A stretch of DNA of 55,775 nucleotides from Catajapyx aquilonaris (Eukaryota): assembly GCA_000934665.2 (NCBI GenBank), contig JYFJ02000634.1, forward strand, positions 62,001-117,775, in the 5' to 3' direction. How positions within the stretch are numbered: the stretch's first letter is position 1; each line of letters starts with the position of its first letter. Of the stretch, positions 17,973-41,662 are shown piece after piece. Made by a program: the position numbers and the translations under genes. Under the pieces are notes generated by a model. That model worked only from the letters and a program-made list of their open reading frames with translations. It was not told the origin of the DNA and made no database searches.

Positions 17973-20900
17973 CTGGTAGGTTGGTTCACCTCATCTGACC
18001 ATCACGGTCAAGGTTCATGCAACTGTAGATAAATTTTTACAGATCGCAACCGTGTGCGCACCATAGTTCGCGCAGCTTGCACGGGTTGGCATCAGCCCGG
18101 CTTGCAACTCCATATTAGTTAGCGTGCGCTTAACGAGTATCCGCATCCCTGGATGTGGCGCACTGTGGCGCACTGTTCCAAATCCTATTCGGGCTGACGA
18201 CTTCAGAACGGTTCAAAAGTCGTCCGCCCGAATACGATTTGGTACAGTGCCCGACAGCAGCGCCTAATCCGGGGTGGCGCAGGACTCGTTAAGAGCACGG
18301 CCGTCCCCATAAGGCTAGGATGGGACTTGCGGGGGGCTAGTTGGCCTAAACAATGATAGCTCTCTCCGTAGTGGGTGTACTGGTAATTATGCATTGCAAT
18401 TGTTTCCAACGCTACGTTTGGTGGGGACAAAATGGCTGACGGTTTGCGATGTTCCCTCTGGGAACTAAACTCACAGGTGAGTTATTTGTTGGCTTCTCGG
18501 GAGTAAGTGTGGCAACGTTGTTATCGGAACAGTATAGCTGCGCGAGTGTGGGTGCGCACTCGGTTGCGTTCGTTAAAAATTCATCTATGAAACTGAGACT
18601 TGCGCCCTGAGCTGTCGTTAAACTCCTTACCGTGTCATCCGACACCGCATGAGCAGTGTACCGGTTCGACCCCATACCCTGACCAGACGCAACAACGCAG
18701 GAGACGGCAGTTGGGCTACTGCAGTGGCGCCAATCACCCTGGGAAGAGCACCGGTCCCTTCTGCAAAGACCAAGCTGGAGGGTCAGTACAGGATGATTAC
18801 ATTCGGAGAGATTAAGATTGTCTGACCCATGAGTGCTCCGATGGCTCCGACTGCGTCTGCAAGGTTCAGGGCGGAGCAGAAGAAGGTTTTCGGTCCGGAG
18901 AGGAACCTTGCGGCCGACTCGAAGCAGAGGAGCAGGGCCATGGAGCAGCTGATGAACTTGAGTCCGTCTGCCCAAGCCGGGTGGGCAGCACGGGCCGATA
19001 GGGACAGTGGGATCAGCTGGAGGACCCCTAGGGCCACGCAGCCTGCCTCCCAACCGTGGGACTGCACGTTCTGGTGGAGCGCCCTACCCAAGCGCCACTA
19101 CACGGACGGGGAAAGGAAAACAAAAAGGTAGGCTTATTGCAGGGCCTCCACAAGACAGCGCATGCGCAGACACTTCATGAGGCCCCGATTGAGTATGATT
19201 GACGCTCAATCGGGGGCCTCAGACCACGCCTTGTCCAAAGACGCATGCGCAAACTGTTCATGAGGCCCCGATTGAGCATGATTGACGCTCGTTCGGGGCC
19301 TCAGGCCACGCCTTGTCCAAAGACGCTTGCGCAAACTGTTCATGATGCCCGATTGAGCATGACTGACGCTCAATCGGGGCCTCAGACGTCCTATCTAGGA
19401 CACGTGATCGATGTTCCGTTTGGGGAGAAAGGTAGAACGCTATCCGCTTTTTTTTCCTTCAGGAAGATGGCAGAGAGTCATGACATGAATGTTATGTGTC
19501 ATCCTCATGGAATCATTCTCTGCTGACATGGAGTACACTGAAATTACGATTCAAGCTCATTTTCTCTCTCTCTCTTCCTTACTAGCAATATTCTGATGAT
19601 TAGTATATCCCCTGCCGATAAGGAAGTCTCGCCCTTTGCCCATAAATGTTATATCTGCGGTCACCAATGTCACCCTTTATTCAGTACGCCCTTGAGGATT
19701 GAGGAGAAAGGAGTCGTCTGATTGAGTCAAGTGCAGCATCCTCCGAGATGATGGCCAACATCGGCAGTTTTGGTCTGTATTTGTTAGCCATGTTCCTGTC
19801 AGGGGTCAATCATTCCCTGGCCCTCCCAAATAACGCGGCCGAAAATATTCCCCATGGTGCTGAAACGGAACAAATCAGTCAGATAGACAGACTGGAACTG
19901 GCCATACAAACAATGATGAGAGCTGTGGAGGATGGATTTGCTCGATCAGGTAATAATAAAGGGCCAATAGATAATTATCAAGTATTGTTAAAGTCCGTTG
20001 AATATGCTGTTACTTTTCTTCCATTGCGCAGCCCGAGAGAGGCGAGAGATCAAGGAGGAAGTGGGTTCATTAAAAGAGGAAATGACAACATTAAAAGAAG
20101 GAATGAAATCATTAGAAGACAAATTGAAGTAAGTGAGCAACCAACGTGTATAACGCAATATTTCTTTTACTGCCACCAACAGCCAAGGATGGAACAATCG
20201 TGATGTTACCACAATGATCCTTTGCTAACATGTTACGTAGATCATGTTAAATGTGTTCTGGAAAAGACTGAGAACTACTGATGAGAAGAGCATGTTGACC
20301 GAAATATGGCTACTTTTTCCATCAAATTGTGTGCAAATATTATTCTAGTGTCTCATCGAGTTGTGTGGAAGGTCAGACCCCTTCGACTGGAGACCTTGAC
20401 CCGGCCACGAGTGACCTGCAATGTGCGTCTGAAGCGAGTCTCGCAGCAGAAAAGAGACTCAAGGCAGAGATTGGTCAGGCAGTGGACACTTTCACCTCAT
20501 CGGTCAGTGGACAGAAATTGGGCAACACAACTGCTTGTCCGACCGAATCTGGTAAGTGGACAGATCATTGCTGCAGGGCCATAAAAATACCGTATACTGC
20601 AGCCCTGCAGGTGCTCCGGAAGAACTTTGCAGAACCGAAATGGTTTCTTATCTACAAAATGGTTGAAGACTAACTCTGGCAATAATTTATTATAGACCCG
20701 ACACCTCATGCAGTACCTCCATCAAGAAATTGCTACGACATGAAGCAACGAGGACACAGCTCTTCTGGCGTGTATTCTGTGACCATCGCTGGAAAACAAG
20801 TCCAGGTGAGGCTCGCGTAAAAAGGTTGCATTCAGCACCCTGAATGATTGCAGATTACATTTTTACTGTCGTCTTGCCCTCAGGTGTATTGCGATATGGA

Positions 20901-23900
20901 GTCGGATGGAGGAGGGTGGACAGTAGTGCAAAGAAGAGACGACATCGAGCCTCACGTGGACTTCAACCGTGAATGGGATGGTTACAAGAGAGGGTTTGGT
21001 GATCTGAATGGGGAGTTCTGGCTGGGTAAGTTACACTCTTATCACTTGTCACCATCACAGTACACGAATGGATTGACAGGCATAAAAGGCCTGGTTTCAA
21101 AATGCTGGGAAGGGTTATTCACTGTGGATATAAAAGTAGTCATTTCTTCTCACCAGTCAGTCTAAATCTACACTATTGTGGTGCCATAATGGCTTAACTC
21201 CCTTTTGATTGTAATCCCCATAAAACATAACCCGCATTGTCCCACCCCGTACAGGTCTGGACAACATCCACGGACTGACCACTTCCACTCCGATGAGACT
21301 CCGGGTGGACCTGGAGGATTGGGAGGGGGAGAAGAGAGTCGCCTTGTACCACACTTTCATGGTCCAAGATGAAGAGGAGAAGTACAACCTCACTGTGGGA
21401 GGGTACAAGAAGGGATCGGGAGGTGATGATCCGGGGAACGCTCTATACTGGCACAATGGCAAGGTCTTCTCCACAAAAGACCAGGACAACGATGGTTATG
21501 GAGTGAACTGTGCAGAGATGTACAAGGGTGGCTGGTGGTACATAACATGCCTCTCTTCCAATCTGAACGGAGTTTATCTCAAGGGAAGGCACGACCAATC
21601 CGGTCAAGGTGTCCACTGGTACTACTGGAAGGGATCGTATTACTCTCTAAGAAGAACAGCCATGAAGATCAGACCCAGATAAAAAGACCAGTAATGACCT
21701 TCTGCACATTTCCCACTTCAATACTCACCACCTTCGCCATTTTATAACTGATCTGCATATTGGTGACATATAGAATCGGTCATAATTATGTCTGTTTTGT
21801 TTCTTTTGATTAAGTCTACCGAAGGCTACGAATGTACCAGAAAACATCCGAATATTCTTTTGTATGTTACATTCCACCTTGAAGTTTCAATGAGGAATTT
21901 ACATTGATAATCTAATTAATGAAGTTCAATTATTCATTTGTGACTGACCCCATGAAACTCGAAAATTGGGGTCTCATCTAACACTACTATAATTATGATT
22001 GTGTTCTTCTATTTTTTAAAAAAATGGATAACATAAAACATGTCACTGGAGGTCTGGAGGTATGTGTCAATAAACTCCTTTTTTCAAAGACGCATGCGTA
22101 TTCAGTTCCTGAGGCCCCGATTGAGCATAGTTGACGCTCAATTGGGGCCTCAGACCCCTCCCTTTTGGCCCCATTTTTTTCCAAAAAGCGCATGTGCAGA
22201 GTGTTCCTTAGGCCCCGACTGAGCATGATGGACTCTCGGTCGGGGCCTCAGACCACGCCTTCTCCAAAGACGCATGTGCAAACGCTTCATGAGGCCCCGA
22301 TTGAGCATGATTGGCGCTCGGTCGGGGGCCTCAGACCACGCCTTCTCCAAAGACGCATGCGCAAACGCTTCATGAGGCCCCGATTGAGCATGATTTACGC
22401 TCCGTCGGGGCCTCTCAAACCCCGCCTTCTCCAAAGACGCATGCGCAAACGGTTCATGAGGCCCCAATTGAGCATGATTGACGCTCGTTCGGGGCCTCTC
22501 AAACCCTGCCTTCTCCAAAGACGCATGCGCAAACGGTTCATGAGGCCCCGATTGAGCATGATTTACGCTCGGTCGGGGCCTCTCAAACCCCGCCTTCTCC
22601 AAAGACGCATGCGCAAACGGTTCATGAGGCCCCGATTGAGCCTGATTGACGCTCGGTCGGGGCCTCAAACCCCGCCTTTTTTCAAGTTTCTGAGGCCCCG
22701 ATTGAGCATATTTTACGCTTTTTTTCCATCCATGCAACGCCGCGGGAGTTATCTAAACCAGCTAACTGTTGGACAGTAGTTGTTTACCTTCGGAGGAGAT
22801 GAGTAGTGCTGGGGCTGCCATCTTTCCAGCTTTTTCATGGCCGAACAGTACTGCCTCATGGCCGCCTGATGGAACATGTCCAGGGTCGTGCCCCTGACAA
22901 ACAAACAAACAAAACAAGTCCATTGTAATGGCCTACAAGAATCCCGCAAACACATCCATCTATCTCTCCATGCACGCTGTTGGCGTCTTGCCGTACTTTT
23001 GCCTGAGCAGGGCTTCGAGGAGGGCCACGATGAAGAGCCTTATGTAGAGGAAGGCCGCCAGCAGCAGGAAGAGACCGAAGTATGCGCACGCGTAGAGGTT
23101 GACGTCCCTGATGGGCTGCAGGTTGGGAGCCCTGGCGTCGGTGGCGTCGGTCACCACCCCTTCCCATCCTTCCAAGGTGGCCACGTGCAGGAGGGACAGC
23201 AGGGCGCTCCAGAAGTGGTCAAAGGTCAGCTTGGCGTTCTGCCAGGTCAGCCCTTCCTTTTCGCAGGCCGCGCGGGTCGGCACGGCGTCGTGCGAAACCG
23301 CGTTGCCTCCCTGATCGACACACTTGTGGAATAGCCCTCCGAAGAGCTGGACGCCCATGCAGGCGTAGATGAAGAGGCAGCCGAAGCAGGAGAGGAAGGC
23401 GGCCAGCAGGGAGGGAAGGGCGTCGATCAAAGCGGCGCCCAGGCGTCGGCATCCACGCCACCAACGGAGAAGACGGGCCAGGCGGAGGCTGCGGGACGCC
23501 CTGGACGCCCGAAGCAAAGGGCCGTCCCCGGGGCCGCCCCTGGGCGCTGTCAGACCCGCCAGACTCAGCTGAAACGGGCACCGTTAAACTGTAGGCTGTC
23601 ATAATTTGGCAACACTGCCCAGCTCGTTACTTGGAGGTAGTACTATAAGCCACTAACACTGCTGCCGCTCCCAGGGGGAAAGTAGTAGGCTACTACATGC
23701 ACGTTGGTGATGAGTCACAGCCCGCCACTGAAGTGAGTCCCACCCTCTCTGACCGCTCTAATTGTTGAGGTGGAAAGTGAAAACTATGGGAACTGCTACG
23801 GACATGCAGACGGACTAGTAGTATGATAGCAAAGCCCTACAGGGAATATGATGTTCATGTCAGAAGATGAAATGAAGGTACCAGCTGTGTCTAAATTGCG

Positions 23901-26900
23901 TTTCTAAGCCGGTGAGCACACCTCAGTTGCGGTAATCAGAGAGGAAACGTATGTGGCTTATAACACGATTTGAACGGGTGCCAAAATCTTCTTTGTTAAG
24001 AGATCAACCCCTCAGAGGCATCTTGGCAAAGTTACTGCTTCACTGCGATGTAACCTTAACCGCTTACATAATTAATTACGAGTTACGGCCGCAGAAAATT
24101 TCCAATTTCAACTTTGGCCAAGTACAACCCCCCCTCTCATGGGGCCTATTCTAAAACACACGCGGCAAAGACTTGCACCAGAATTTATGACAATTTTTTT
24201 TTGTGTGTTGCTCCACCGCGATAAATTTGCAAGGAGGTGAAATTACTGCCCCCGAGTTTATGCAGCATTACGCCGAGTGCTCGGGAAGACTAACTTTCCT
24301 CCACATTTTTTAGTAGAATTTAACGACATCATATTACGAGGAAGGAGGGTCGCATGGCATAGCTATCACTTAAAAGTGTCCACAAAAAGCGACATTAAAA
24401 TTAAGGCTTAATAGAAAATTAGTAAGCAGAGCTGTGGACATAAACAAACATTCAAATGGGGGGCCAGCACCCCCTCAGCATAATGGAAGGGGCGGCCGGT
24501 TTAGAGGAGAGTCCTTTTCACACACACACACACGGAATTCCAATGAGCTCAAATGGAACTTGTGCACTTGCACCCAACTAATCAGCATTCATTTACATGT
24601 TAATTAACAAGCAGACAACGGTTGGCAGGTGCAAACCTCACCGCAGACATGCTCACTTAAGCTCCACTTGCACGCGTTGACTCATCACCAACGTGCATGT
24701 AGTACTAATTTCCTCCGCAGAGCGCCATCTAGTGGTGGCATGTCGTACTACGTTCAAGCCTGCCACATTTTCACAACTTCTGATGCCATGTTATTACTCG
24801 AGTGTAATTGGGCCGGATTTTCCCCAACGTACACAGGCTGATCGAAATGGCTTTTGTGAGGCAGACCAGCCATTTGAACTTTGCTGAGGTCAACGGCTGA
24901 GGTCACACCGGCCTCAATACATGCAGTGCATATCGCAAACAGTAGCTATTACACTATCAGTTCCCAGAAGAGTGATTACTATTGGCACGAGACCAACACA
25001 AAAGAGGGCACTATTATGCTATGCAGGCCCAAAAAGAAGCACGGGTTGGGGGCCACTGCCTCAATGCAACAATGGTTAACTGTCGAGGGTCACGAATACG
25101 TATCGATCTCTCCAGATCAATAGGCCATGACCCACAGCTATGCACATTAATTTTTGACCAAAAAAAAAAGTCCCAGGCACAAATGGCTTTCTTTTTTTTG
25201 CCACACACAGATCCATGCAAAAATGGGGCTGGAATATTCTTGCTCTTTAAAAAGCGGTAAGGTCGATAGTGCAGCCCCGCAGCACTCCATCAAAAAGAGA
25301 TGGGCCGCTCCCTACCTGCACACATCCATTTCACTCTCAATTATTTGGCATGCTTAACTAGAAACCTAATTAAGCGGGAGTCCCCACTGGTTACATGGGA
25401 ACAGCGCATACACTTTGCGAGGAAAGTACACCGGTCATGTTCCCACCGGAGCTCAAAAGTCTGAAACAAGTACAAAGTTCCCCGTAGTGTTCAGATAAAA
25501 AATCAGCAATGTTCAGTGCAACATTAAAAAAATTATGCAACATTCAGAAAAATTATGCAATGTTCTTAACAAATTACACAATCTTCAGAAGAAATTCTGC
25601 AACATTAAAAAAAAGATTATGCAACGTTAAAAAAATTATGCGAAGTTCATAAAAATTCTGAATTGTTCCTAACAAATTCTGCATCATTCAGACCAAAACT
25701 TGCGATGTTCATAAAAATTCTGTAAATTCTGCAAATATTCTGCAATGTTCAGAAAAAAATATATTTCAACATGAAGTAAAAATTATGTCACATACGAAAA
25801 TAAAATAAAATCTTTAACATTCAGAACATAATTCTGCAACGTTTGTTCAGAACAATTTCTGCCACATTCAGAACAAAATTTGCAATGTTCATAAATAAAT
25901 TGTGCAATGTATCACAAAAGTGAGGCAAAAACTAACTCCGTTAAGTGTCACAGTTCAACAGTCCGCGCACTTGCTACAAGCAAAAACATGAGGCCCAGTC
26001 CCAGAATAGAACCGGCTCCGAATAAACTCTTGTGACGCCTAGTGCGGAGAACAAGGTTGTATCAACATGGCATAAAGGAAGTGTTTTAGTTCGGAATGGA
26101 TCGATGCCTATCCATTCATGCAACTGGGGCCACAATCAAACAGCATTAATGCATGCTCTGCCATGTTTCAGAGATTGATCTGTTGCGCTCCCCCACGTTT
26201 TATGCACGTCACCCACTAGAAATAGACCCGCATTTGCAGAATATAGACCAGGCTCTATGAATAAGTCATGCGAGGGCATACATACATAAAGACTGCTTGA
26301 TACAACTAACCGAGAACGTGCTCAAACGTTCAGGAAAAAAGGCCGCTGATGGGATTACATTGCGCTTGGATTCACCTGGGAATTGCTTATTGCTATGTGC
26401 ACACTAACCATATTGTTTGTACACGAAGATACGCAGACAATAGCTCATATATTACTCAGATCAGGTGTAACGCAACGGAACGTACTGTTTATTTTATAAA
26501 TTAGAACATTTTTGATGTTTACATAATAATACAGAATAAGTTCGCCACACATCTGTTTACGTAAAATGAACGAGCCGTTTTTATCCTACAGAAATAGTTG
26601 TGGCGTCCTGCAGATGCTACTCATTTCAGTTGCTGTCACGACTTATCGGACATAGTCGACGAGCATTACGTGTAACAGCAGCATTATTTTAGAGCTTGCG
26701 ACTTGGAATTCGTTGCGATGCAGGTTGTGTTCAGCCTAATATTAAAAGTTGTACTCACGAAGAGAATGGCAAAGTCGAGCCCCTGCAGAGGGTCCTGTAT
26801 GAGATGCGTGGGTCCGTGGGCCAAGATGCGGAGAAGCAATTCCAGGGCTAGAAATGCGGTGAGTCCAGCGTCGATGAAGTCCATTGCGAAGGCGATTCTG

Positions 26901-29900
26901 GGTCGCTGCTCGAGTGTGTTGTCGTCCAGTCCAGCCACCACCACACCCGCTATGATGACAAGCGTCACAGCCAGTCTGAACAGACAGTTGTGCAGGATAC
27001 GGAAAGATGCGTTTCTCAGGCAGGCCCACCGCTTCCCTTGCGTCCATGGGCAAGCACCGGCTACGAACCCGCCAGTGGACGCAGTCGATGCTCGTGGCGT
27101 CGCCTCAACTTCCATCTGCTCCATTGAGTTCCCTCGGCTGGAAATAAGAGACGATGACTTATGGTTCTGCGTTGCGTTTTTCAGGACTTACCTTCTGTTG
27201 ATTCCGGCTGCGGCGTTAGCGGTGGTTCCGACTGTTGTCTTGGCCGCTTTGTGTCCGGCTCCGCACTTGTGTCTGATCCAGTCGACCAGCTCCGGCAGCC
27301 TCGATCCGCTCCAGAGGGCCAGCTCATGACCTCTCCGCCAACCTCTAGGTCGCGGGTTGACCAACAGACTAGCCAGGAACAGGTTGCTGATTATCAACTT
27401 CCCTGCTAGGAGAGCCAGCAGGAACAGCGGCAGAGCAGTGGCTAAGGGTACTGCGGGTTGAAGGGCTGCTAGGGGCTGGCTCCATCGGCCGAGGAAGGTT
27501 CGGAACATAGCCAGCAAAGAGTGGGCAAAGGATGCGCATGCCCATCTAGGAGGAGGCTGACCTTTGGCTGACCAGTACTCTGAAACGACAACAGAACAAT
27601 TACGCTGCGGAAGAACTTGTCGTGATTCAATCAATGTGAGATTCGCTACCTTTCCGAAACCAAGTTACGTCAGAGTTGGCAGAATTCTGCCAGAATTAAT
27701 TACTGGACTTAAGCTCCAGTTCTAATCAGCAGCCCCGGATTCCCGCATCAAATTACACCGGATTTGCACCGGATTCCCGATGTTTTGATTGGAAAAGCTC
27801 AACCTTTGTATTCGGGACTCAAAGAGAAAAGTAAGCTGCTTTACTCCACTAGTTTCGAGGCGAGAGCTTATTATCTTTGTATCAATCCCGGGCCTGTGAT
27901 AACAATAGACTTTTAATAGATAATGACATTCATTTCCGAGTCAGCCTCATATGCGGATATGCAGCCGATCCAAGCTGTTAAATAAATCACAGCTAGTGTT
28001 ACATCACATAAATCATGCCACTAATGATTAAATTCATGTATCACCCACTTTGGCGAGGCTTGTATACAATGCTAATAAATGTTTTGTCAGTTTAGCAGCT
28101 TATTAGCATTGCTGCGGTTTCAGCATTAGACGCTAATGTTTATGTGTATTTATGGGGGCCTCGTGAGAGCAGCTGTCGCTAATGCTATCCATCAAGCGGA
28201 GGATGATGGAGAGCCATGATGATCGTCACAAACGCCAGGGATGTTAGACTCACGTATGAGCATGGGCTTGAATATCCGTGTGCAGACTATTGCCAGGACG
28301 ACCAGGAAGCCGCTCAGATGAAGGGTAGTCAGGGCCAGCATGCGACCAGCAGCTCGGATACGACGCTCCAGAAGAGCAGCTGGACGCCACAAGGATGCAA
28401 GGGTCGCAAGTCGAACTAGACGCATCTGGAAATACAAAAATGCACCATCGAATCACTAAATTCCCAATTAGCACGTAGATATCCGTGGGACATCCCATGT
28501 CGATATCCGTCGGACATCCCATGTAGATATCAGTCGGACATCCCATGTAGATATCCGTCGGACATTCAATGGAGATATCCGTCGTACATCCCATGTAGAT
28601 ATCTGTATGACATCCCATGTAGATATCCGTCGGACATTCAATGTAGATATCCGTCGGACATCCCATGTAGATATCCGTCGGACATCCCATGGAGATATCC
28701 GTAGGACATTCCATGGAGATATCCGTAGGACATTCCATGGAGATATCCGTAGGACATCTCATGGAGATATCTGTATGACATTCCACGGAGATAACGGTAG
28801 GACATTCCATGGAGATATCGGTAGGACATCCCCTGGAGGGCAGAACGATCATGGATTAATTTATCCAAGATGCAAAACAGTTTCTTATGTAAAACCTGCA
28901 TACGTTAACTCTCGCCTACATGTTTCAGGATACGTAGAAATCAACCAAACCTTCTGGGGTCATTCACATGTTACGTCAGTGCTACTTGAACGGTGTACAC
29001 AATAAGTGATTAACTTAAAGCTAGATGTTTCGATATGATAACAGCAGTAAACCACTAATGGGAGTGGAATTAGAGTTTATGATACGCAGTACATGTTCGC
29101 AATCTAATCTGCTCCTCTTGTTTGCTTAATTACTTTGCAACAAACGCAGATACACGTAAAACGTAACAGTGTCAAATTAGCAGGCGACACAGTTACTACA
29201 GAGAGCTACAAGGTGAAATAAAATACTGAAGTTTGCTGGTTACGGCCCATAAATGTATGCGAGTATCGTTACGTACTTACTAACAAATGTTAATTATTAT
29301 TAAATGAACAATTCATATTTGACGTCCAATTTGTACACACATTTGCTTAGCATAAACGGAGTTTTGACATGGACATTATTAACCTGGTTGGGATAGTCAT
29401 AAATTTGACGGCCGCAATTTTTGAGGTTGCAAAGTGAAAAAGATTTTTATCGGTGTAGCTATAACTCCGCTTCTTTTTCTAATTTGAATCAGCTGTTTTA
29501 TGGGTACCGCTGAAAATGTCTGGGCAGCCAACTTTTTTTTAACGGCTGATTATGTAATAAAGTGGAGACAGGCTAAGCGATTCCGGCAATTTATGGCAAA
29601 GATTGGGCTGGAAGCGAAAGGTTCCAAGACGCTGGAAAAGTAACGACGCAAGTATTATGCGACAGACAGCAAATTTGCGTAATGCATGTGGTAAATGGCA
29701 GACACAAGTCGTGGACGTCAGGTCATTGCACAAATTCATCCACATTGAGCTGTCAATCAATCAGCTCAGTCAGTCGCATACGGCTTAAAGGAATAAGTGA
29801 GTCCACTGGCTTAACTTACCGTCGTAGCAGCCCGGAGCAACGGCAGAAGTGCTTCGTCTCTGACCAGATGTGTTGAGGCCGAAGTGAAGGCCATGGCCAG

Positions 29901-32900
29901 CTCGAACAGGTGACACGCATCCCGCAGGTAGATCCTGGGTCCCAGGGCTATCAGCTTCAGCACAGCCTCACCGCCATACACGCACGTGAAGATGAAGTCC
30001 GCCTTCCTCAACTTGGCCAGCAGCGATGCGTCCAGCCCATGGTGGAAGCTCACCATGGCCACAGCGTCGCATCCGAGAGTCCCCAGCAACAGTAACTCGA
30101 TCCGTGGGTCACTTATGATTTTCTGCAGACATGTCCTGTTAAGAAGAACAATCCCGTTACTAATCCGTTACATTCCCAGTATGTATAAAATTGCAAGTGT
30201 ACCTGAGACACCTGCACTTAGCAGGAGCTGCTACCTCTACAGGATCCCTGCCACTTGAGGACGAGCTCTCGGTTGTGATGCCGGGTGATGGGCACTCTTC
30301 GTCGTCATCCGCATCGTTGTCCGTCTCGTCCACGTTGGTTATCGTAGGGTCCTGCCGATGATCTGATTTGGATGGTGACGGAGCCTCGGAAGCCACAATG
30401 TACGGTGTCCCAATTGTTATCGAAGTTTCTTCTGCCGTGTGGCGCGGATGGTGGTCTTGAAGGCGCTGGAATTTAATTCCACGCATTCTTTTTTTAGAAA
30501 ATGCTATGAAGAAACAGAAGCCGAATTCCCCCAATAAAAGGTGCACTATTCATATTTCCAAGGCGTAACTTGAGCCCCTAGCAATCATAGTTTACGTACA
30601 AAACTACAAAAGAAAACGACTGCAAATATCTACAGAATTTTCTGTCAATGTGGCTCGTCGTAGCAAGAATTTTAACCAATTTTACAGCCACGTTTACATG
30701 TGAGCGATTTATCAGCTGATAAAAAGTATCAATATATTTTCGTCCCAAACAATTGGTCTCATCGCTGCAACATCGCTGATCAAATAGCTTCCGTGCAAAC
30801 GTGGTTTAAGTAACGGCTCACTCATCGCACATGAAATAAGGCGTAACGACCATACCTGTAAACGTCGCTGCAACCTCACAACGCTTTCGAGTGAGGACAC
30901 AACAACTGCGGAGACCAGATTGCAGGTCAGCAGGGCACAGGTCACCAGCGCAGGAAGGAAGAAGGTCAAGCACATCGGGCCAGCCACGCGCATAAACTGC
31001 AGTAGAAATAACGGTAAGTCACGAGGTCGAATTCCCTCTTTTCCACGTGTGACAAACCTTGTGGAATAGGTCGGAGAGCGTGTCGGAGGTCATGATCCTG
31101 AGGGCAGTGAGCAGCCCATCTGTGAACGAGTCAAAGGTGGACTGGGGCATGCCTTGCGGACTCCTGCCGTACCCCTGTCTGCAGGTGAAGTTCATCAGTG
31201 TCTGCAGGAACCCATCCTCGTCATCCGAGGCTCTGGCTACGTGACCCAGCGGACACTTCCATGCACCGGTGGTGTTTCCGCACAGTGCGTACTCGCCAGA
31301 CTCTTCCGCATACCAATTCGCTTCGGGTCATAACCAATGAGATTATGCACACTTTATTACAATAATGAGCAGGCCATACCTGGATTTGAAAAGAACGCTC
31401 TGAGGTCATCCGGTGAGAGTGGTGGTGCCCCAGGTGGCGGGTCTCTTACGCACTTCCGGGTCAGGACACCCGCGTTGAGCTCAACTCCGACCAGGCTGAC
31501 CACCCCGAGAGACAAGAGCAGCAGAGGAGCCGCGCGGAAGATCCCAAGCAGTGCCGCACCCATTCCGCCAGTAACCGCTTTATGTTCTGCGTACACGGAA
31601 AGCAGTGCTTACGTCCACATATTGAACAAGCAACGGGGGCTCACCTGGGCTACAAGACGTACTCTCCTGCACGTAACGGATGACACGGAGAGCTCGAAGT
31701 GCTTGCAGTGCACCACTTATCTCCCAGTACGGTATCATGCAGGCGCTAAAGAGCAAAAGCACAAATTATTCGTATCCATATTTGTAAAAACCCTGTCAGT
31801 TAGTGTTGACGTGGGTGCGACATATTAATTAATCTGTTTTCAGGTGGACACATTATATGCTTGCCAAAACATGCTCCATTCCTGTGGGCCGATGCAGGTG
31901 TTTACAGTTATTACAATTACGAACGTTCATATCGTTTGTATTCACACAGTGCGCACAATGGGTGGTAACACTAATTGCGAAACGTATCCCCGAGGCAGCT
32001 GCGGTTTGAATGGACTAATTCAGTGCATCAATTACACTCGTCATAACCCTCATTTTCCTGGCAGAGCGTTACAAACCGCAAGTAGTTGCATTTTAATAAA
32101 ATGTAATTCACATTATGATTACATGCCAGTAAAACAATGCTCTACGTGCAATTAATTCAGTACGGAAAAAAATATTGCGGAACAAACTCTGTAAATAATA
32201 ATTAATTAATTTCTTGAACAGGTATACATTTCCCCTATGCGTCGTGCTATGAGAGATATTACGTCAATGCACTGACCACCAAATGACAGTGAGTAATCCA
32301 TCCAGCACGTTCCAAGGGTCCCTGAGGTACGAGAAGGGCTGCATGAAGAACCCGCGGGCCACGATCTTGAGGCCCATCTCATGAGCGTAGACAAAGATGA
32401 AGGGGAACTCGTATGCGGACGTCCCTGGGAGGCTGATGAAGAGGACCTGGGCAGCCAGATGAGCCAGGATGAGAAGGAGCATGGTCCGCTCGAAGCAGGG
32501 GACCACGCAGACTCTGAGGGCCAAGCGACGGACCGCATTGTGGGGGCCAAACAGCCACAGGGACCTCTCCGCACTGAACCGATGGACACGACGCTCAGCA
32601 TTCACCACCACAAACGTCTGCAATATCACATCGGATTAGTCTCAGATTGACGCCGGTTGTCATACCGCACCTTATGCGAGTTCCTGTAGTACGGATCCAG
32701 GTCTTCCAAGGGGTCACCCAGCAGACCGAGAGGAAGGGCTTCCCTCAGCCGCGGTGCCAGGATGGTTCCTTGCCCCAACGACTCATCCGGGTGACGACGC
32801 TGCTCACCGTCACGGAACAATGGAGCCGGAGACTGCGGACGGAAAAATTCATTTTTAATTAATTCGCTCATTTATTAATATGAACTATAGCTGCCAGAAT

Positions 32901-35900
32901 TTGGCAACACTGCCCAGTGCCCAAAGTGTGTCCCAACCTCTCTGACCACTATAGAGAGTGAACCTGCTGTTGTGTCCTCCCATCATTGAACAGGGAAAGT
33001 GATAAATATGGTAACTACATGCACTTTGGTGATGAGTCAACGCGGGTACAGGGACAGAGTCACATCTAGCCAATTCTGTGCATGATTACGCTTAAATATT
33101 ATCCTTCTAATGGCGTAAAAATATATCAGATATTTTTTTTCCTCATCTGAGGTCGGAATGACGCCTTGACTCATCACCAACGTGCATGTAGTTACCAAAG
33201 TTGTCACTTTCCCCATTCATTAATAACGAGATGTACGATGTAGTAATGTACGAAACTCATGTACCAATAATGTACTAACTAATGTACTAAATGTTACCTG
33301 TGGCAGTAGCCTACTAATAATGTATACGAAATATGTATTGTGTACGTCCTACGGATATCCATATATCCAATGTCCCTTCAGTGGAGATGTGGATATCCAT
33401 AGGATGTTCCAGGGAGCTTCGTTCTACCTGGGAGATTCGCTCATCTCTAGAGCGGTCAGATAAGAGGGTGGGACACACTTTGGACTCCAGTGTTGCCAAA
33501 TTCTTTTGTGTAATGGATTAGCTATACTTTAGTCATATGTACAGAATTGGCTAGGCGCGACTCTGTCCCTACATGTAGGGCCTAGGTGCATGTATTTTAC
33601 CATATAGTTATCCCCATTCAATAATAATGAGAAAACACGAGGCGGTTCACTGACTGTACGGTGGTCAGAGAGGTTGGGACAGTCATATACTAGTTGGGTA
33701 CTGGTTGGGTACTAGTTGAGTACTGGTTGGGTACTAGTTTGGTACTGGTTGGGTACTAGTTTGGTACTGGTTTGGTACTAGTTTGGTGCTAGTTGGGTGC
33801 TAGTTGGGTACTGGTTGGGTACTGGTTGGGTACTGGTTTGGTACTAGTTGGGTACTGGTTTGGTACTAGTTGGGGCTAGTTTGGTCTAGTTGGGACAAAA
33901 TGACTCATATACAGAATTGGCATATACAGGCATATTTACAGAATTGGCTGCCTGTGACTCTGTCCCTGCAAGCGTTGACTCATCGCCAACGTGCATGTGT
34001 CATTTTCCCTGTTCAATGATGACCAGGACACAACAGCAAGGCTTATATATTGACCGTATGGTGGTCAGATATAGGTTATTGGGACACACTTTTGCTATCA
34101 GGCCAAATTTTTGACCTGGTGTCCAGCAGCCTTTGACCCGTGTTGATGACCTCCCCTGACCCACCCCACCCCCTGCAGTGTAATCAATATGCAGCGTGTA
34201 GGTCAGGAGGATGGTTCAAAGACACACATTTATGGGTGCGGCTTTTGGATCGATATGCCGTACAATGGGTATGGGTACCCGGGCCATGCAGTATAGGCTA
34301 TACTCACAGGTGCACCGGTGCAGGAGGTGCTGGCGCCGTCCAGGGCGGCCATCAACCTGGCCAGAGTGGCGCAGGTGAAAGGTCGGAAGGGCAGGTTTGA
34401 CCTGGCCCCAGCCAAGGCCGCCTCCCATTCGACCCTGTCTCCATCGGCCCTGGAAGGCACCACCTCCTCCTCCATCACCACCTCCTGGTGATGGTGGTGG
34501 TGGTGGTGATGGTGATGCTGGTGCTGGGCCTGCATCACCACACGTACGGTGCACTGACCCGACCAACCCCCCTCCGCAGGGGGAGTGTGTGTGTCTCTAC
34601 ACCCAACAGAAAGGGTGTGTGTCCAATGGGATCAATATTGTTGCGCCTGCCCCCAACAGAGCACCTCTCTCTCTCTCTCTCTCTGGCTACGACCCTCTCT
34701 TCAGGGGTACATATACAGCGTTGTGTATATCCATCACCTGAGAGCCGTGATTTATATCGAGTCATGCCGTGACACACGACACTGCATCAACTTCAATGGG
34801 CTTTGCCGAAGAACATGTTAACCGCCACTGATGGCAACACTGGCGGTTAACATGTTTTTCGCCCGAGCCGTTCAATTGATTAATTGTCAGTCTCTGTGTG
34901 TTGTACACACGATCATGTTCTCTCCGCAAAATGTATGTTGTTACTCGCACATATATGACACGCGCACCTTATTTTTAAACCTTTGCGTTCAATGGGCTCC
35001 AAAATGGCAATCTAATTAGACTTAATTTATATCGAGGAAAATGTTGCTGTCATAAATTACGGGTTGATTTTTCGCCCCACTGCTACACAGTAGGGGCAAG
35101 ATAACTCATGCGTTTTATGGGAGGTGGCTTGTGTCCTTGGCAGCCATAATTAGCCCCGCCCCCTATACCGGTCGACCAATCAGGATTCGATTTCGAAGGA
35201 GATGTTCTCAAAAACCTCAAGAATGAGATCGGTTTGTTTACACTAACGCAGTTGGCAACCCAGCAGGGGGCGGAGCTAATTATGGTCGCCAAGGACACAA
35301 GCCACCTCCCAAAACCCTTAGGCAGGGAGCATATACTGCACAAGAGGCGCAAACATTCGATTTCCGCGTCTCTCTGTTTGGGGCGTTACCAAGGCTGGCG
35401 GCCCCAAACAGAGAGACGAGGACATCAAAGGCGCCAACAGAAGTTTGCGCCTCTTATGTACAGTAGTATATGCTCCCTGCCTTAGGTTATTCTGTCCCTA
35501 CTGCAGTACCTGCTAACTTAGTACCATTGCCAATGGGGGATAATTTTCCCAATAACTGTCCACAGTAGGTCAGTGACAGATGGGAAAATCACCTCCCTTG
35601 GCAATGGTACTGTAGAGTTAGCAGTGTAACTAGCAGTGGGACGAAAATTCCACTCTTAATTTTTAATTTCAAAAGTAAAGGTGAAGTGGGGTAAGTGCAT
35701 ACACGGGGTAAGTGCATAAACAGGCCGCCATATTGGAATGAAAATAGCTGACGACACCAAATCGCATCAGGCACTCTTCGTGTAGCTGCACATAACATCC
35801 CCGGACGCGTTTTGGTGTCGTCAGCCATTTTCATTCCAATATGGCGGCCCGTTTATGCACTTACCCCGTGTATGCACTTACCCCACTTCACCTTACGTAA

Positions 35901-38900
35901 AAGTGCATAATCGCCTATGAGAATTTTGCTGTCCAATCAGAACAACAGACTGCGTATTTTCGCCGGAAAATATTTGTGTCGACATTTAATTATATATATA
36001 TTTAAATTATTCAGGAATGATCGTAGAACAAGAAGAAACATCAGGATTACCAATAGAGCAAGAAGAAACAGTCCGATTACCAATAGGTACAAAATGAAAA
36101 ATTCAGGTAGCCAATGACGCCAAAAGAATCCGGATTGGCCAGAGAGCTCCAGTTTTAAAATCTGGATTGCCTATATAGACCACGAAAATCCGGGTTCCCA
36201 ATAGAGCAAGAAGAAAGATCCGGATTAGGCCTACAGAGTAATAAGAAAAATCCGGATTGACAATACATCAGGGGGAGAAATGCAGATTTCCCAGAAAGCA
36301 ACAATATAAATCCGGATTGCCTGCATAGCAAGAAAATATACGGATTACCAATACAGTTCAAAAAAAAAAATCCGGATTGCCTACAGATCAAGAAGTTAAA
36401 AAATCCGGATTGCCTATACAGAATACGAAGAAATATCCAGATTGCCTAACAGAGCAAGAGAAATCCGGATTCCCAACAGAGCAAGAATAAAGATCCTGAT
36501 TGCCCAAAGAGCAAGAATAAATATCCGGATTGCCGCTGGAAAAAAAAAAATTATATTTCTTTCTCGAGTCGCTATAGAGAAACATTCAGAGCTGTCGACA
36601 CAATCTGGAGAGAAAAAAAAAAAAAAACCCGGGGGTTAAAAAATTGAAGGAGCCATTGGCACCTTTTCCTCTCTCCGGATAGAGTTCCGGGGGGAACTGG
36701 ACTGTTGCCAAAGTGATGCAACCGACCCCAAGACAAACCTCTGCAACCGGAATGGAGCCCCGGACACTAATGAAAATGGCCTTCCAATCCCCACACAGGT
36801 CCACTCCAATCAATTCTTTTTTTGGGGAAAAGAAAAGAAGAGTGATCAAGCCATGGCTCCATCTGGCCATTTTCCACCCGGAAAATCCGGGGGGGGAGAA
36901 ACACGTCACCCGCCCCCAACCACCCACTCTTTTTTTCCCCCCCGTCTCTCTCTCTCCAGTAACGACCTGCTGCATAATACCTCCTGCGATATTTTTATCT
37001 CCGGGTGCCGACAGCCGCTTTAAAAAAATAAAAAAGGGCCAAAAAAAGATGACGGTTGCAATCCCCCCCGCAAAAAAAAATTCGCAACGTTTTTTGCGCT
37101 TGGAATCGTACGATTTCCATTCCGATGACTTCATTCAGATTCGGAACCCTTGCCAAAAAATGCGAGTTGCATGTAACGTAATGACCACATATTTTGACGT
37201 ATGTAGGCCAATAATTCAAACCACTCGCTGGATTTATGACCAGGTGCGAAAGCTACTCATTTTTCGCAAAACTTTTGCCATTTTTTCGGCCAAAAATTGC
37301 GCTTTGAAGCTTTAAAAAAAAAAAGAGAGAGCCGAATCGCATTTCGCCTCCTGAGGCCTTTTGGCGACAATGACACGAATCATATACAGGGTGGTCCAAG
37401 TTCAAGTGTCGTTTTATAACGGCGATTAATAGCAGTGATTTTGCGATGACGTAGCAGCGACGCGTAAAATGTCCCACTTCGGCGCAATCGAAGTGGGCAA
37501 TTTTACACGTCGCTGCTACGTCATCGTTAAGCGCTTCTATTAATCGCCGTTATAAAACGACATTGAACTTGGACCACCCTGTATATGAATTTGTTACGAA
37601 CGCAAACGAGTGCGCACTACAGTTCGCGCAGCGAGCACGGTTGGAATTACACCATATTTGTCCATGGAAATTCGTCGCTATTTCCAAGATCACTCGTAAC
37701 TCATAATGACCATTCATTTCGTCTGAGATTTTTTGTTTTTGATCTCGGGGGGTAACTCTGGCAACGTTGTCAGAACAATGGAGCTGCGTAATTGTGGGTG
37801 CGCACTCGTTCAAGCTTGTAAAAATTCGTATACAGCAGTAAACCCGTTGGGAACACTGTCGACCTACACGCCACAGCCAGATGGCGCTCCTCCCTCTCTG
37901 TCCACTGCTGCCTTCTACGGAGGAAAGTAAATACTGACTAAATGCACGTTGGTGATGAGTCACCGCGTACAAGCACAGTCTCGCCTGTACAGTGTACTCT
38001 ATTTATGATGGTTCAATAATTACATGCTTTACAAAAAAAAAACGTGTAATGAGTTTTTGTGATTACGATTCCACCTTTTGGAATCCGTTTCTAGGAGAGG
38101 CCGTCATTTGCACGCAGATGCAGGTCGCAAATGTCAATATTGCGTTTTGCAGGGCCCAACACCTCGCACATCTGGGCCTCTCCCCCACTTCTCCCTCACC
38201 CCCCTCCATCTCTGCCAGAAGCCTACAAACAAGATTACAGTAAACCTCATATACCCCTGCGCAAATTGCAACTAAACGAGCATTAAAACGAGGCGGAACA
38301 CCGCCACACCTACATACACAATTCCTGCGCCGCAGCCCACAAAAAAATGGTGCACAAATCCTGCACAATCCGCAACATCATAGCCGCTAAAAGTAACCAC
38401 TAATGTGTCACACAACAAGCAGCTATTTATAACTAACTACAAATCTACAATAGCTGTTCAAACATCAACTTTTAGTTGGAATACAGACGAGTGCGCAACG
38501 CAGTTCGCCCGAATTGTTTCCAACACTACGCTCGAGGGGGTAACAATAATGGCCGACTTATACGATGTTGCCAAGGCGCTCCGGAACGAATCTTAAAGGC
38601 TACCTGTAACTGTGGCAATGCTGTCGGAACTATGGACTTGCGCAAGTGTGGATGCGCACTCGGTTGTGCTCGTAAAAAAATTCATCTATACTTACAGTAT
38701 AGATGTGCGCCATCTTGTAGTGGACTATTGTACTACGTCAAAGTGGGGCCGGGCAGTGTTGCCCAGTTTTGACAGTGTGTTTACTACTATTCATGTACGA
38801 CGTTTGGCTGCCCGTCAACTGGCTGCTGGTCATTTGTCTGCCGCGACATTTAGTTGCAGTATACAAATGGCACTGCAGCCAAATGATCGGCAGCCAAACG

Positions 38901-41662
38901 TCGTACATTCATAGTAGTAAACACACTGTCAAAACTTGGCAACACTGCCCGACCCGCCCACAACTTGGACGTAGTACAATAGGCCACTACAAGATGGCGC
39001 ACATCCCCCCCCCCTCTGTCTGTCTGTCTGTCTCTGCATGCTACTGCCGTTCTACGGGGGTAAGTAGTACTAATGCACGTTGGTGATGAGTCACCACTAT
39101 TGGCCACTACCATACGGCGCGCATCCTCCCTCTCTGCACGCTGCTGCCGCTCTACGGAGGAAAGTAGTACTACAAGCACGTTGGTGATGAGTCACCGCGC
39201 GGACAAATGTATCCCCACCTCTGACCGCTATTATAGAGAGTGACCCTGTTGTGCCCTGTGAACGTGGATAGTAGTAACTACATGCACCTAGGTGTTATAG
39301 GGGCAGGGTCACTCCTAGCGAATTCTGCCAACCAACTGGTCCGTCCTGCATACGTAAACAATCGCCTCTAGTTGTTTCCGGCAGGTGACGCAACCCGATA
39401 TCGGTTTTTCGTTTTCCGATCCGGGTTTTGTTGTCCCACCGACAATAATAGAACCGGTTGAAATCAGGGCGGTTTGCTGGCCCCCATAGTCAAGCGGGTG
39501 ACCCCGTAAGTCTGGAGAGTTGACATATATTGTCCGTTGACGTGACAAGTGCTGGGAGTCACGGCACTAGGTCCTATTAATAGACCCGGCTTTAACCTCG
39601 AGTTTTGGGGCCCCTCCCACCCATCCCTAGCATTCCATCATGTCTGTGGAGCCGCAGGATTAATTGCTCATGAATAATCCAGTCCAACAAGACCTGCACT
39701 TTACCAGGAAAGCCTCTCTGCATGAGCTTCACTTCACTAGGACGGCCCCCCGAAATCAACCTCGAAAAAACTCGAGTTCTTTACTCATCAGCATGACAGT
39801 CAATCTGAACCAATGTGTTGACACAACTGACCCTTAACGAGCTGTATAAGCTTGGAGAAACAAAAATCTGGAGTTACATCCCAAGCCATCTAGTAAGGAG
39901 TTGGGTCGTCTCCTGCTCCGTCTTGGGTGGGCCTCCCATAGACTAACCACCCGGGGGGAACTCGCAAAAAAAACACCGCAAATTACATATTAAAAGGTCG
40001 ATATCCTCGCAGTGAGGTTAAGAACCACCCGGATTATTGTAATAACTAGTAGCTAACGCCAAAATTTGGCAACACCGCCCAGCCCGTTCGGACTCGGAGG
40101 TCAGTCGGAGGTAGTACTATATGCCCCAACCAGATGGCGCGCATTTGCACACTACTCCCACATGGTAATTACAATCACCTTTGTGTTGAATCAATGTAGG
40201 GACAGAGTCACGCCCAGCCAACTCTGATTTCACTATAGTAGCGAACCCGTTAAATTTGGCAACACTGTCTGACGAGTCCAAAGTGTGTCCAAACCCTCTC
40301 CGACTACTACAGTGAGCCTGTTGTGCCCTGTCACTGTTGAGCGGGGAAAGTAATAAGTGGCAACCATGGTAACTATACATGCACGTTGGTGATGAGTCAC
40401 AAAGCCTCCGTTGAAGTGTGCCCCCAACGACTCCGACCGCGCGCTACAAAGAGCGAACCTGTCATGTTGAACAGGGAAAGTGATAACGACGGTAACTACA
40501 CGCACCTAGGTGACGAGTCAACGCGTGCAGGGACAGATTCACACCTAGCCAATTCTATTCGGAATATTCGGCACAACATATTTTACAACGTAACATTTTT
40601 GTCAGGCGCAGTCAATCAATGAATCAATCTTCATTCGAGCATAAAATCCAACCTTGTGAACGCGTTTCGACCACGTCTACATGTCTGGGCCCCTCCAACA
40701 TTCACACTGTAGTATATTCCACAAGGGTCGCCTCCTTTACAGCCAAAACCATTTACCGCCAACACATATTTTCATTTACCGCCAATTCCCTGGCAGCCAA
40801 AAGCCCTGGCCGCCAAAATCTTTTACCGCCAATTACCTGGCAGCCAATTTCCTCTACAGCCAAAAGCCCTTAGGGGTCGTCCATATACCACGTGACCGAT
40901 TTTTGGCCACTTTTTGACCCCCCCTCCCCCCAAAACGGTCACGTGGTATATGTAGGACCCCTTACCGCCAATTCCATTTACAATCAAATGCCCTTACCGC
41001 CAAAAACTTTTGGCGGTAAAGGTTTTTGGCTGTAAGGGAAGCGACCCCTGTGAAGCCCACGAATAATCCAGCTCAACAAGACTGCATTTTTAACACAGCC
41101 GACTTTTAACGAGCAGTTACGTTTTGAGAGTTGGGTCGTCCCTGGCTCCGTCTTGGGCGGGACTCCTTCAGACTAACCACCCGGGGGGCATCACACTTTG
41201 CACGCTACTGATTGTAATGGACACGTTCCTTACCTCCAATGCTCGTTGTCGTCTGAGGCGTCGCAAGGCCCTCCGACGCTCCTTGAGCTGCGGTAACGAC
41301 GCGGGCGTCAGAGGCCGAAACATCTGTACCAGGTGCTTCGGAGGCGGAGGCTGCTCCGCCATCCTTCGTCTCCTGCTGGATGTCCTCCTTCGAGACGACC
41401 TGTTCGACTGTAGGGTACCATTGCACGTCGGGTTGTTGTTGTTGCTGTCGTGGTTCGTGGCCGTGCTCAGGTTGGTCCTGCTCCGGTTGAGCATCGCCTC
41501 CAGTGGCGATCCCGGAGGCCTGGGTGGCCACGGAGGGTCCGGTTCGTCTCCGGGGTGAGCCGCGACCACCGTGGTCTCGGTGGCGGTGTCACCATCGACA
41601 GTCTCCTCGCTCTCCTGGAGCCTCCCTCTCCTCCAGAACTCTCTCTGCAGCTCCTCGCACAT
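17014..41662 (-). CDS. Divergent four-domain voltage-gated sodium channel alpha-like protein (para/Nav1-like paralog), spliced, ~1650 aa with exon 1b
   Basis: 17 coding exons with GT-AG boundaries and compatible phases (one DIV S4 junction uncertain). Recognisable Nav motifs: FRPx[46 protein letters not shown]...[40 protein letters not shown]......Y..AMKK, SP.LLRLVR, FKTF, VSST..RQR...SARVIQ.AW. Confidence 0.9.
18662..18760 (-). CDS. Nav-like exon 16: DIV S3-S4 (SPALLRLVR)
   Basis: Not in the ORF track; translates [33 protein letters not shown], matching para SPTLLRVVRV; 3' boundary uncertain (18662 vs 18678). Confidence 0.65.
18827..19097 (-). CDS. Nav-like exon 15: DIV S1-S3
   Basis: Acceptor ccgtgtag|[17 protein letters not shown]...FESAARF...LNLADAVG; donor G|GTCAGA. 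Confidence 0.8.
19152..19390. repeat. Hairpin-containing ~82-84-bp tandem repeat, left array (~3 units)
   Basis: Unit agacgcatgcgcaaac..ttcatgaggccccgattgagcatgattgacgctc..tcggggcctcagaccacgcctt.tcca. Confidence 0.85.
19748..21682 (+). CDS. Secreted fibrinogen-related protein (signal peptide + coiled coil + FReD; techylectin-5/ficolin/angiopoietin-like), 393 aa, nested antisense in Nav intron
   Basis: Exons 19748-19949, 20032-20128, 20349-20551, 20696-20805, 20884-21025, 21255-21682 (1182 nt, phases 1/2/1/0/1 consistent). Motifs [80 protein letters not shown]...GGWWY..C..SNLNG.Y, MKIRP. Confidence 0.93.
22085..22715. repeat. Hairpin-containing ~84-bp tandem repeat, right array (~7-8 units)
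   Basis: agacgc starts at 22268, 22351, 22435, 22519 and 22603; same unit and orientation as 19152-19390. Confidence 0.9.
22788..22893 (-). CDS. Nav-like exon 14: III-IV linker (inactivation gate region)
   Basis: [35 protein letters not shown] vs para [23 protein letters not shown]; acceptor ttgtcag, donor AAG|GTAAAC. Confidence 0.85.
22997..23568 (-). CDS. Nav-like exon 13: DIII S3-S6
   Basis: S4 [53 protein letters not shown]; acceptor gtttcag, donor AA|GTACGG. Confidence 0.92.
25490..25915. repeat. AT-rich ~21-bp degenerate minisatellite
   Basis: Recurring aaattctgcaatgttcag-like unit. Confidence 0.75.
26759..27137 (-). CDS. Nav-like exon 12: II-III linker end and DIII S1-S3
   Basis: [16 protein letters not shown]...[10 protein letters not shown]...[11 protein letters not shown]....QDPLQGLDF; donor TTC|GTGAGT. 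Confidence 0.88.
27192..27579 (-). CDS. Nav-like exon 11: DII pore and S6
   Basis: [27 protein letters not shown]...[14 protein letters not shown] vs para [27 protein letters not shown]...GNLVVLNLFLALLL; donor AG|GTAAGT. Confidence 0.88.
28254..28425 (-). CDS. Nav-like exon 10: DII S4-S5
   Basis: Acceptor tatttccag|[18 protein letters not shown]...[11 protein letters not shown]; donor C|GTGAGT. Confidence 0.8.
28474..28830. repeat. 24-bp minisatellite
   Basis: tagatatccgtcggacatcccatg about 15 times; produces the spurious [11 protein letters not shown]. Confidence 0.9.
29820..30135 (-). CDS. Nav-like exon 9: DII S1-S4 start
   Basis: [10 protein letters not shown]...HHG...[17 protein letters not shown]...FE...LLRAATT; donor ACG|GTAAGT. 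Confidence 0.88.
30203..30465 (-). CDS. Nav-like exon 8: short I-II linker
   Basis: Open acidic, Ser-rich frame; acceptor aattccag, donor AG|GTACAC; phases match neighbours. Confidence 0.75.
30856..30996 (-). CDS. Nav-like exon 7: DI S6
   Basis: FMRVAGP...FF...[10 protein letters not shown] vs para LRAAGP...FF...NLILAIVAMS. Confidence 0.85.
31058..31320 (-). CDS. Nav-like exon 6: DI extracellular loop and pore
   Basis: Not in the ORF track; [22 protein letters not shown]...[10 protein letters not shown]...[25 protein letters not shown]. Confidence 0.88.
31380..31586 (-). CDS. Nav-like exon 5: DI S5
   Basis: [22 protein letters not shown] vs para [22 protein letters not shown]. Confidence 0.88.
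31645..31745 (-). CDS. Nav-like exon 4: DI S3-S4
   Basis: [15 protein letters not shown]; acceptor ctttag, donor G|GTGAGC. Confidence 0.8.
32277..32617 (-). CDS. Nav-like exon 3: N-terminal domain and DI S1-S3
   Basis: TFVVV..RFSA..SLW.FGP.N.VRR.A...[20 protein letters not shown]; donor at 32277 or 32280. Confidence 0.92.
32671..32832 (-). CDS. Nav-like exon 2: N-terminal domain
   Basis: PDESLGQG...RL...[13 protein letters not shown] vs para PDPTLEQG..RL...PPELASTPLEDIDPYY; phase-0 acceptor ccgcag, donor AAG|GTGCGG. Confidence 0.9.
33688..33892. repeat. 11-bp minisatellite (tactrgttkgg)
   Basis: About 18 tandem copies. Confidence 0.9.
34308..34535 (-). CDS. Nav-like candidate first coding exon 1b (poly-His, PFRPFT motif)
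   Basis: ATG at 34535; [18 protein letters not shown]...[14 protein letters not shown]...; phase-0 donor CCT|GTGAGT. Confidence 0.7.
35676..35896. mobile_element. MITE with ~70-bp terminal inverted repeats
   Basis: aaggtgaagtggggtaagtgcatacacgggg...ccccgtgtatgcacttaccccacttcacctt. Confidence 0.8.
36030..36540. repeat. ~30-bp degenerate minisatellite (aatccggattgcc core)
   Basis: About 16 copies of core plus A-rich tail. Confidence 0.8.
37387..37581. mobile_element. Tc1/mariner-type MITE (copy 2)
   Basis: Same TIRs and TA flanks as 201-407. Confidence 0.85.
38700..39005. mobile_element. Long palindromic MITE-like element
   Basis: ~110-bp arms (catcttgtagtggactattgtactacgtc...gtttggctgcc / ggcagccaaac...gacgtagtacaataggccactacaagatg). 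Confidence 0.75.
40720..41052. mobile_element. MITE with a nested Harbinger/Tourist-like MITE (40873-40961)
   Basis: Outer TIR cacaagggtcgc...gcgacccctgtg; inner GGGGTC...GACCCC with TTA on both sides. Confidence 0.65.
41234..41662 (-). CDS. Nav-like candidate first coding exon 1a (MFRPLT motif)
   Basis: ...[31 protein letters not shown] vs para LFRPFTRESLVQIEQR...RAEGE; strong phase-0 donor GAG|GTAAGG; 5' end uncertain (ATG 41662 or acceptor near 41730). Confidence 0.72.

Follow-up and report, generated by a model that had tools for sequence, protein, structure and literature searches.

Two candidate alternative first coding exons, each with an FRPxT motif, in a divergent Nav-like channel gene of Catajapyx aquilonaris

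Tandem duplication of 5' coding exons in combination with alternative promoters can give a gene homologous N-termini, as set out in the accessible portion of Martinez-Gomez et al. (2021; PMC8373072), where it is also reported that six human SCN genes retain an ancestral duplicated exon pair. Among four-domain channels, the calcium channel Cav1.2 (CACNA1C) has alternative first exons 1a, 1b, and 1c, which encode N-termini of 46, 17, and 10 amino acids and are used in a tissue-specific manner, according to the available text of PMC3634016. Here we describe a 55,775-nucleotide (nt) stretch of animal genomic DNA from Catajapyx aquilonaris (GenBank assembly GCA_000934665.2, contig JYFJ02000634.1, positions 62,001 to 117,775 of the forward strand), referred to below as the window and numbered from its first letter. 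Its minus strand carries a four-domain gene resembling those of voltage-gated sodium (Nav) channels, with two exons, 1a and 1b, that each encode the FRPxT motif of the Nav N-terminus. We consider it about evenly balanced whether 1a and 1b are alternative first coding exons, each spliced directly to a common exon 2.

The locus can be compared with these systems point by point. Like the class described in the accessible portion of PMC8373072, it would combine a duplicated 5' coding exon with alternative promoters; here, however, the arrangement is predicted, and homology between the two exons is down to 12 residues. The SCN pair, as presented in the same portion of that paper (SCN2A in a figure legend), is internal and mutually exclusive, whereas at this locus it is the first coding exon that is affected. 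Cav1.2, according to the available text of PMC3634016, is likewise a four-domain channel, each of whose alternative first exons is spliced to one shared second exon, with N-termini of differing length as the result. Its first-exon use has been shown experimentally, whereas that of 1a and 1b is predicted from sequence; and its first exons are not described in that text as sharing a conserved motif, whereas both exons here keep FRPxT at a similar distance from the exon end. Among the open-access papers inspected, such first exons were described for Cav1.2 and in none for a Nav gene, and the accessible portion of a review of Nav evolution (PMC6259924) mentions neither the first exon nor the N-terminus.

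The coding part of exon 1a (41234..41662, minus strand) begins with the ATG at 41662-41660 and specifies 143 amino acids rich in Arg, Ser, and Asn. Its FRPLT motif lies at 41306..41320, with the Phe 29 residues ahead of the exon end, and the exon closes at a phase-0 donor, GAG/GTAAGG, read in the sequence at 41228..41233. An internal ATG (41360..41362), which opens the peptide MAEQ..., precedes the FRPLT Phe by 14 residues. In the profile alignment described below, this internal Met, at 41362, is matched to the Met that initiates canonical Nav N-termini, and exon 1a therefore resembles a canonical first exon with an N-terminal extension; a shorter form of 1a starting at 41362 would resemble a standard Nav N-terminus. 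The coding part of exon 1b (34308..34535, minus strand) begins with the ATG at 34535-34533 and specifies 76 amino acids, including a run of 10 His followed by an acidic stretch. Its motif, FRPFT, lies at 34374..34388 with the Phe 27 residues ahead of the exon end, and its donor, CCT/GTGAGT at 34302..34307, is also phase 0, with the coding signal falling to non-coding right after it. The two exons thus share an architecture in which the motif Phe precedes a phase-0 donor by 29 and 27 residues, and each has its own ATG and an in-frame stop upstream. Both donors fit the phase-0 acceptor at 32832 (...tttttccgtccgcag/TCT) of exon 2 (32671..32832, minus strand), an exon of 54 codons that is phase 0 at both ends, carries the sequence LEDLDPYY, and would be common to both predicted forms. 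An earlier note on this DNA had located the two exons, their FRPxT motifs, donors, and phases, and a TATAAA hexamer upstream of 1b, and on checking every coordinate was exact. The N-termini it foresaw, one Arg-rich and of about 140 amino acids and the other poly-His/acidic and of 76, agree with the translations of 143 and 76 residues, and its proposal that either exon could be joined to the acceptor at 32832 is feasible, with phase 0 at both donors and at the acceptor.

To assess the two exons against the Nav family, we assembled a profile from the N-termini of homologues, each extending from the first residue of the protein as far as the point that matches the beginning of exon 2. Twenty-three of the 25 homologues found by way of exon 3 were used; P0079 and P0129 were dropped, having no recognisable motif region. 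The profile was run, with filters off, against the 1889 stop-to-stop open reading frames (ORFs) of at least 20 amino acids in the six frames of the whole window. Exon 1a ranked first (17.4 bits, expectation value (E) 3.5e-4) and exon 1b second (9.7 bits), whereas the third-ranked ORF reached only 3.5 bits, E 6.9. In both exons, it is at the motif that the family profile matches. Codon usage was scored as log-odds from 825 codons of homology-supported exons versus intron triplets, with 200 ORFs of at least 60 amino acids outside known coding regions as controls. Exon 1a scored 0.327 bits per codon and exon 1b 0.591, or 0.649 without its His run; the highest of the control ORFs was 0.082, so that 0 of the 200 reached either exon, and the eight homology-supported exon pieces gave leave-one-out scores of 0.08 to 0.64. 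The GC content of 1b at codon positions 1, 2, and 3 was 0.70, 0.47, and 0.80, as compared with 0.62, 0.46, and 0.76 in the homology-supported exons. On both flanks of the exon the ORF of 1b fell below zero, to -0.10 bits per codon upstream of the ATG, where codon periodicity was lacking, and to -0.11 beyond the donor; the coding signal of 1a spanned about 41698 to about 41255. These results support the view that 1a and 1b, which both look like real coding exons, belong to the channel gene.

By itself the bare FRP.T pattern is weak evidence, and it is the context that makes the case strong. Across the six frames of the window the pattern was observed 3 times against 1.2 expected, and in 200 simulated single strands of 9.2 kb it occurred at least once in 11.5% and at least twice in 1.5%. 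This frequency is what speaks for a second motif that is a chance match within a GC-rich open stretch. However, an open frame followed 24 to 34 codons downstream by a phase-0 GTRAGT was present at 0.08% of 63270 non-coding positions, giving a joint probability (0.115 x 0.0008) of about 1e-4. Chance would also have had to place the second-best profile match among 1889 ORFs on the correct strand and between 1a and exon 2, and to give it codon usage exceeding that of all 200 control ORFs. Occurrence of 1b by chance is thus very unlikely, on the order of 1e-4, and we hold the explanation as a whole to be highly improbable.

The spacing of the motif bears on how the two exons are joined. From the Phe to LEDLDPYY the distance is 70 residues when 1a is joined to exon 2 and 68 when 1b is, and in ten homologues with the strict motif it ranges from 55 to 86. 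With the exons in series, as 1a-1b-2, the 1a motif would stand 144-158 residues from LEDLDPYY, and among the 21 homologues with the motif just before domain I S1, 0 have two N-terminal motifs upstream of it. Direct joining restores the family distance, and spacing therefore favours splicing of each exon straight to exon 2. The mechanism most likely to account for this arrangement, as judged from the sequence, would use two transcription starts. One would lie upstream of 1a and a second, ahead of 1b, within the 1a-1b intron; 1b would supply its own ATG, and each exon would then be spliced to the shared exon 2, yielding two isoforms of the channel identical except for the N-terminal tail. The tails would be 143 residues, rich in Arg and Ser, for 1a and 76 residues, with the His run and acidic stretch, for 1b, and would differ strongly in charge.

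Upstream of 1b, several features are consistent with a separate 5' end. Its ATG sits at the onset of a coding signal periodic in third-position GC; an in-frame TGA (34632..34634, minus strand) lies 33 codons upstream of the ATG, and a TATAAA (34751..34756, minus strand), a candidate core promoter element, lies 221 nt upstream of it. Upstream of 1a, no TATAWA was found within 600 nt of the ATG. Two sequence arrangements in the region upstream of 1b were also observed. The 12-mer CTCGATATAAAT is present twice, 275 nt apart, each copy including a TATAAA (35031-35026 and 34756-34751, minus strand) and starting 5 nt upstream of that hexamer. A near-perfect palindrome at 34799-34869, with 35-nt arms that are 83% complementary and separated by 1 nt, sits 43-113 nt upstream of the 1b TATAAA; its core 20-mer is unique in the window, and the palindrome may act in regulation or form a hairpin.

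A number of observations weigh against the reading of 1a and 1b as alternative first coding exons, and they are gathered here and in the paragraph that follows. The profile match of 1b, at E 0.087, is above the HMMER inclusion threshold. The codon scores are partly an effect of GC content, since the antisense frames score 0.303 (1a) and 0.434 (1b), and the control ORFs are poorer in GC than the 1a and 1b stretches. Similarity between the two exons is slight: Smith-Waterman comparison aligned 12 residues, 7 of them identical, a score equalled by 37 of 1000 shuffles, and the corresponding DNA regions showed no similarity, their local score of 14 falling between the mean (11.7) and maximum (21) of the shuffles. 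With so little to align, only the shared motif and exon architecture point to a common origin of 1a and 1b. The TATAAA upstream of 1b is weak evidence for a promoter because the minus strand of the 55.8-kb window contains 19 such hexamers, and the observed/expected ratio of CpG gave no CpG-island signal at either putative promoter. Finally, most tandemly duplicated exons end up constitutively spliced, as stated in the accessible portion of PMC8373072.

This last point also speaks for an alternative in which 1b is an internal exon: transcripts would start at 1a and be spliced 1a-1b-2, either constitutively or with 1b as a cassette, 1a-2 and 1a-1b-2 forms then occurring side by side, and no second promoter would be needed. 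Three phase-0 AG candidate acceptors are present at or upstream of the 1b ATG (34529..34573, minus strand), with first exon bases at 34571 (gag/G), 34553 (cag/T), and 34529 (cag/G). From each of these AGs 1b is a whole number of codons, and hence its inclusion or its skipping would preserve the frame. The acceptor at 34529 has 8 pyrimidines in the 17 positions from -20 to -4, the same as the exon 3 acceptor, and over the 20 or so codons that precede the 1b ATG, codon usage scores weakly positive, without periodicity. In the cassette form each isoform would still have one motif at the canonical distance. Against this stands the quality of the candidates. The six acceptors in the gene that we took as real have 8-13 pyrimidines of 17, and five of them have 11-13 together with a T-rich tract, whereas the candidate at 34553 has 5 of 17, that at 34529 has 8, and that at 34571, with 12, has a disfavoured G at -3. 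(Of the six acceptors, four were fixed by the profile gap and frame and two by eye.) The ORF upstream of the 1b ATG, as noted above, averages below zero and has no periodicity, and constitutive splicing in series would produce the displaced 1a motif and the doubled motif seen in none of the 21 homologues. We regard an internal 1b as unlikely.

Another alternative is that only one of the exons is used, the other being left over, unused, from an old duplication or else part of some unrecognised transcript. The weak profile match of 1b is in keeping with this, as is the outcome of protein searches, in which neither exon found a relative: a word search with residues 21-76 of 1b among proteins of near length gave 2 candidates and one with 1a among longer proteins gave 6355, none of which scored. 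Neither these searches nor an exhaustive search with exon 3 recovered a transcript-derived protein holding either exon. The gene is also a fast-evolving one, with 39% identity between exon 3 and its best relative. However, a relic so diverged should have lost its frame, consensus donor, and codon bias, and both exons keep all three; moreover, the coding-like signal of each exon ends at its donor. Retention of frame, donor, motif, and codon bias in two exons that are otherwise unalignable argues for selection on both. Use of one exon only therefore appears to us rather improbable, and we return to the reading in which both serve as first coding exons.

If 1a and 1b do descend from one exon, the event must be old. 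BLASTP found no alignment between them, and with 12 alignable residues and no similarity in DNA, any duplication would be ancient. The earlier note's description of the pair as duplicated alternative first exons accordingly stands in part: both exons are coding-like, carry a Nav-like motif, share the same phase, and acquire the family spacing when joined to exon 2, but the similarity bearing on a duplication is confined to 12 residues in protein, with none in DNA. Tentatively, and with somewhat more doubt than confidence, we propose that an ancient first-exon duplication has been kept in a fast-evolving channel with D/R/E/F at the selectivity-filter positions (see below), leaving two promoters and two tails that share only FRPxT, some 70 residues from LEDLDPYY. 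We infer the alternative use of the exons, the 1b promoter, the duplication origin, and the roles of the tails. As to those roles, isoform-specific trafficking or regulation of the N-terminal domain would be the most plausible. Comparison with other collections added little on the exons themselves. Against solved structures, 1a gave 3 weak non-channel matches (E of at least 0.099), and for 1b His tags accounted for the 704 matches, the best 60 of which include no channel; Pfam had no match on the ORF of either exon. A transposon-borne origin of the exons was considered and dropped because their coding parts are free of overlap with any repeat family in the window, the one exception being the 9-nt periodicity within the His run.

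The gene to which the exons are assigned can be followed along the rest of the minus strand. Between 32811 and 17044, eleven ORF pieces line up in order with a 17-homologue profile and cover its positions 47-1563 of 1594, and Pfam Ion_trans matches fall on pieces from domains I, II, III, and IV; the gene thus specifies four homologous six-transmembrane domains in one polypeptide. The N-terminal region of Nav channels, an FRxFT-like motif followed by a motif just before domain I S1, was likewise found. Compared with solved structures, exon 2 gave 30 matches, all 30 of them sodium channels, the best being NavPaS (E 1.1e-6). Exon 3 (32282..32617, minus strand; 3' end provisional) starts TFVVVN..., encodes domain I S1-S3, and corresponds to positions 91-202 of the homologue profile; its best solved structure is cockroach NavPaS (E 1.7e-25), and it too has a Pfam Ion_trans match. 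The remainder of the gene, from domain I S4 to domain IV and the IQ motif (17017..32281, minus strand), was followed as ORF pieces on the profile, by tblastn, and by Pfam Ion_trans. A full HMMER scan with exon 3 of 1.84 billion representatives gave 1099 matches at E<=1e-3, of which the top one was 39% identical, and zero at E<=1e-30, while a word-based search among longer proteins gave 2 distant four-domain channels from 249 candidates. With a best relative only 39% identical and none at E<=1e-30, the gene's own product and its close relatives must be absent from the collection searched. Judging from the sequence, the channel gene as a whole evolves fast and is a very divergent Nav-like member.

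Nav channels have a hydrophobic inactivation triplet, IFM or MFM, in the III-IV linker and, C-terminally, an IQ motif. The IQ motif is retained here (...RVIQ.AW..YK), and in the III-IV linker (22773-22895, minus strand) MFH is aligned to the MFM of P0041, a Nav1-like, arthropod-like homologue. In pairwise alignment with P0041, the selectivity-filter positions (in the pieces 31046-31321, 27353-27559, 22996-23511, and 17044-17652, all minus strand) read D/R/E/F, whereas those of P0041 read D/E/K/A. The filter is therefore neither of the Nav types given in the accessible portion of PMC6259924, DEKA (Nav1) and DEEA (Nav2). The Arg in domain II suggests a non-canonical or non-conducting channel; the gene's exons are long and open and its codon usage is biased, which speaks against a pseudogene. 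With NavPaS (PaFPC1) and other Nav alpha subunits the predicted protein has in common the four Ion_trans domains, the N-terminal motif before domain I, and the IQ motif. It differs from P0041 in filter and triplet, and it differs from the homologues examined, none of which has two N-terminal motifs or motif exons, in having two.

The surroundings of the gene were also surveyed. In the introns around 1b we found an 11-nt microsatellite of 19 copies and several short inverted-repeat elements resembling miniature inverted-repeat transposable elements (MITEs), the microsatellite and MITE-like elements lying at 33688-33894, 32982-33224, 35678-35894, and 38746-38955; ends of the MITE-like elements recur at 37937, 39169, 40374, and 40495. 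Upstream of 1a, satellite-like tandem arrays at 42131-42886 (periods of 286/54 nt) and 43755-44093 (periods of 126/63/16 nt) occupy much of the stretch, and the 1a-1b intron holds inverted copies of the unit of the second array (40773-40872). Next upstream on the minus strand, about 5 kb from exon 1a, comes a Peptidase_C13 gene (legumain / glycosylphosphatidylinositol (GPI)-transamidase family; 46659-52853, minus strand), of which three ORF pieces match Pfam. Within a channel intron, between the III-IV linker exon and the domain IV exons and on the opposite strand, lies a gene for a fibrinogen C-terminal domain (20848-21679, plus strand; Pfam Fibrinogen_C, E 2e-46 and 5.7e-20). A tRNA gene at 13332-13403 (plus strand; Rfam RF00005, 39.7 bits), which lies downstream of the channel gene and far from exons 1a and 1b, was the sole match in an Rfam scan of the window.

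The extreme N-terminus of Nav channels is poorly understood. The accessible portion of PMC13022357 places the N-terminal domain of Nav1.5 beneath voltage sensor I and reports that its salt bridges with domain I S6 affect inactivation and current density; the domain also binds calmodulin, and mutations in it are dominant-negative, according to the available text of PMC7515574. If both junctions exist at the locus described here, the gene would produce an isoform pair differing only in the cytoplasmic tail ahead of that domain, and gene models at the locus should carry two 5' ends. It would then be the first case of alternative coding first exons among Nav genes. The unit under selection would be FRPxT and its position, so that this short motif would be functionally constrained, and the pair would serve both as a natural experiment on the Nav extreme N-terminus and as a simple set of isoforms with which to test the motif.

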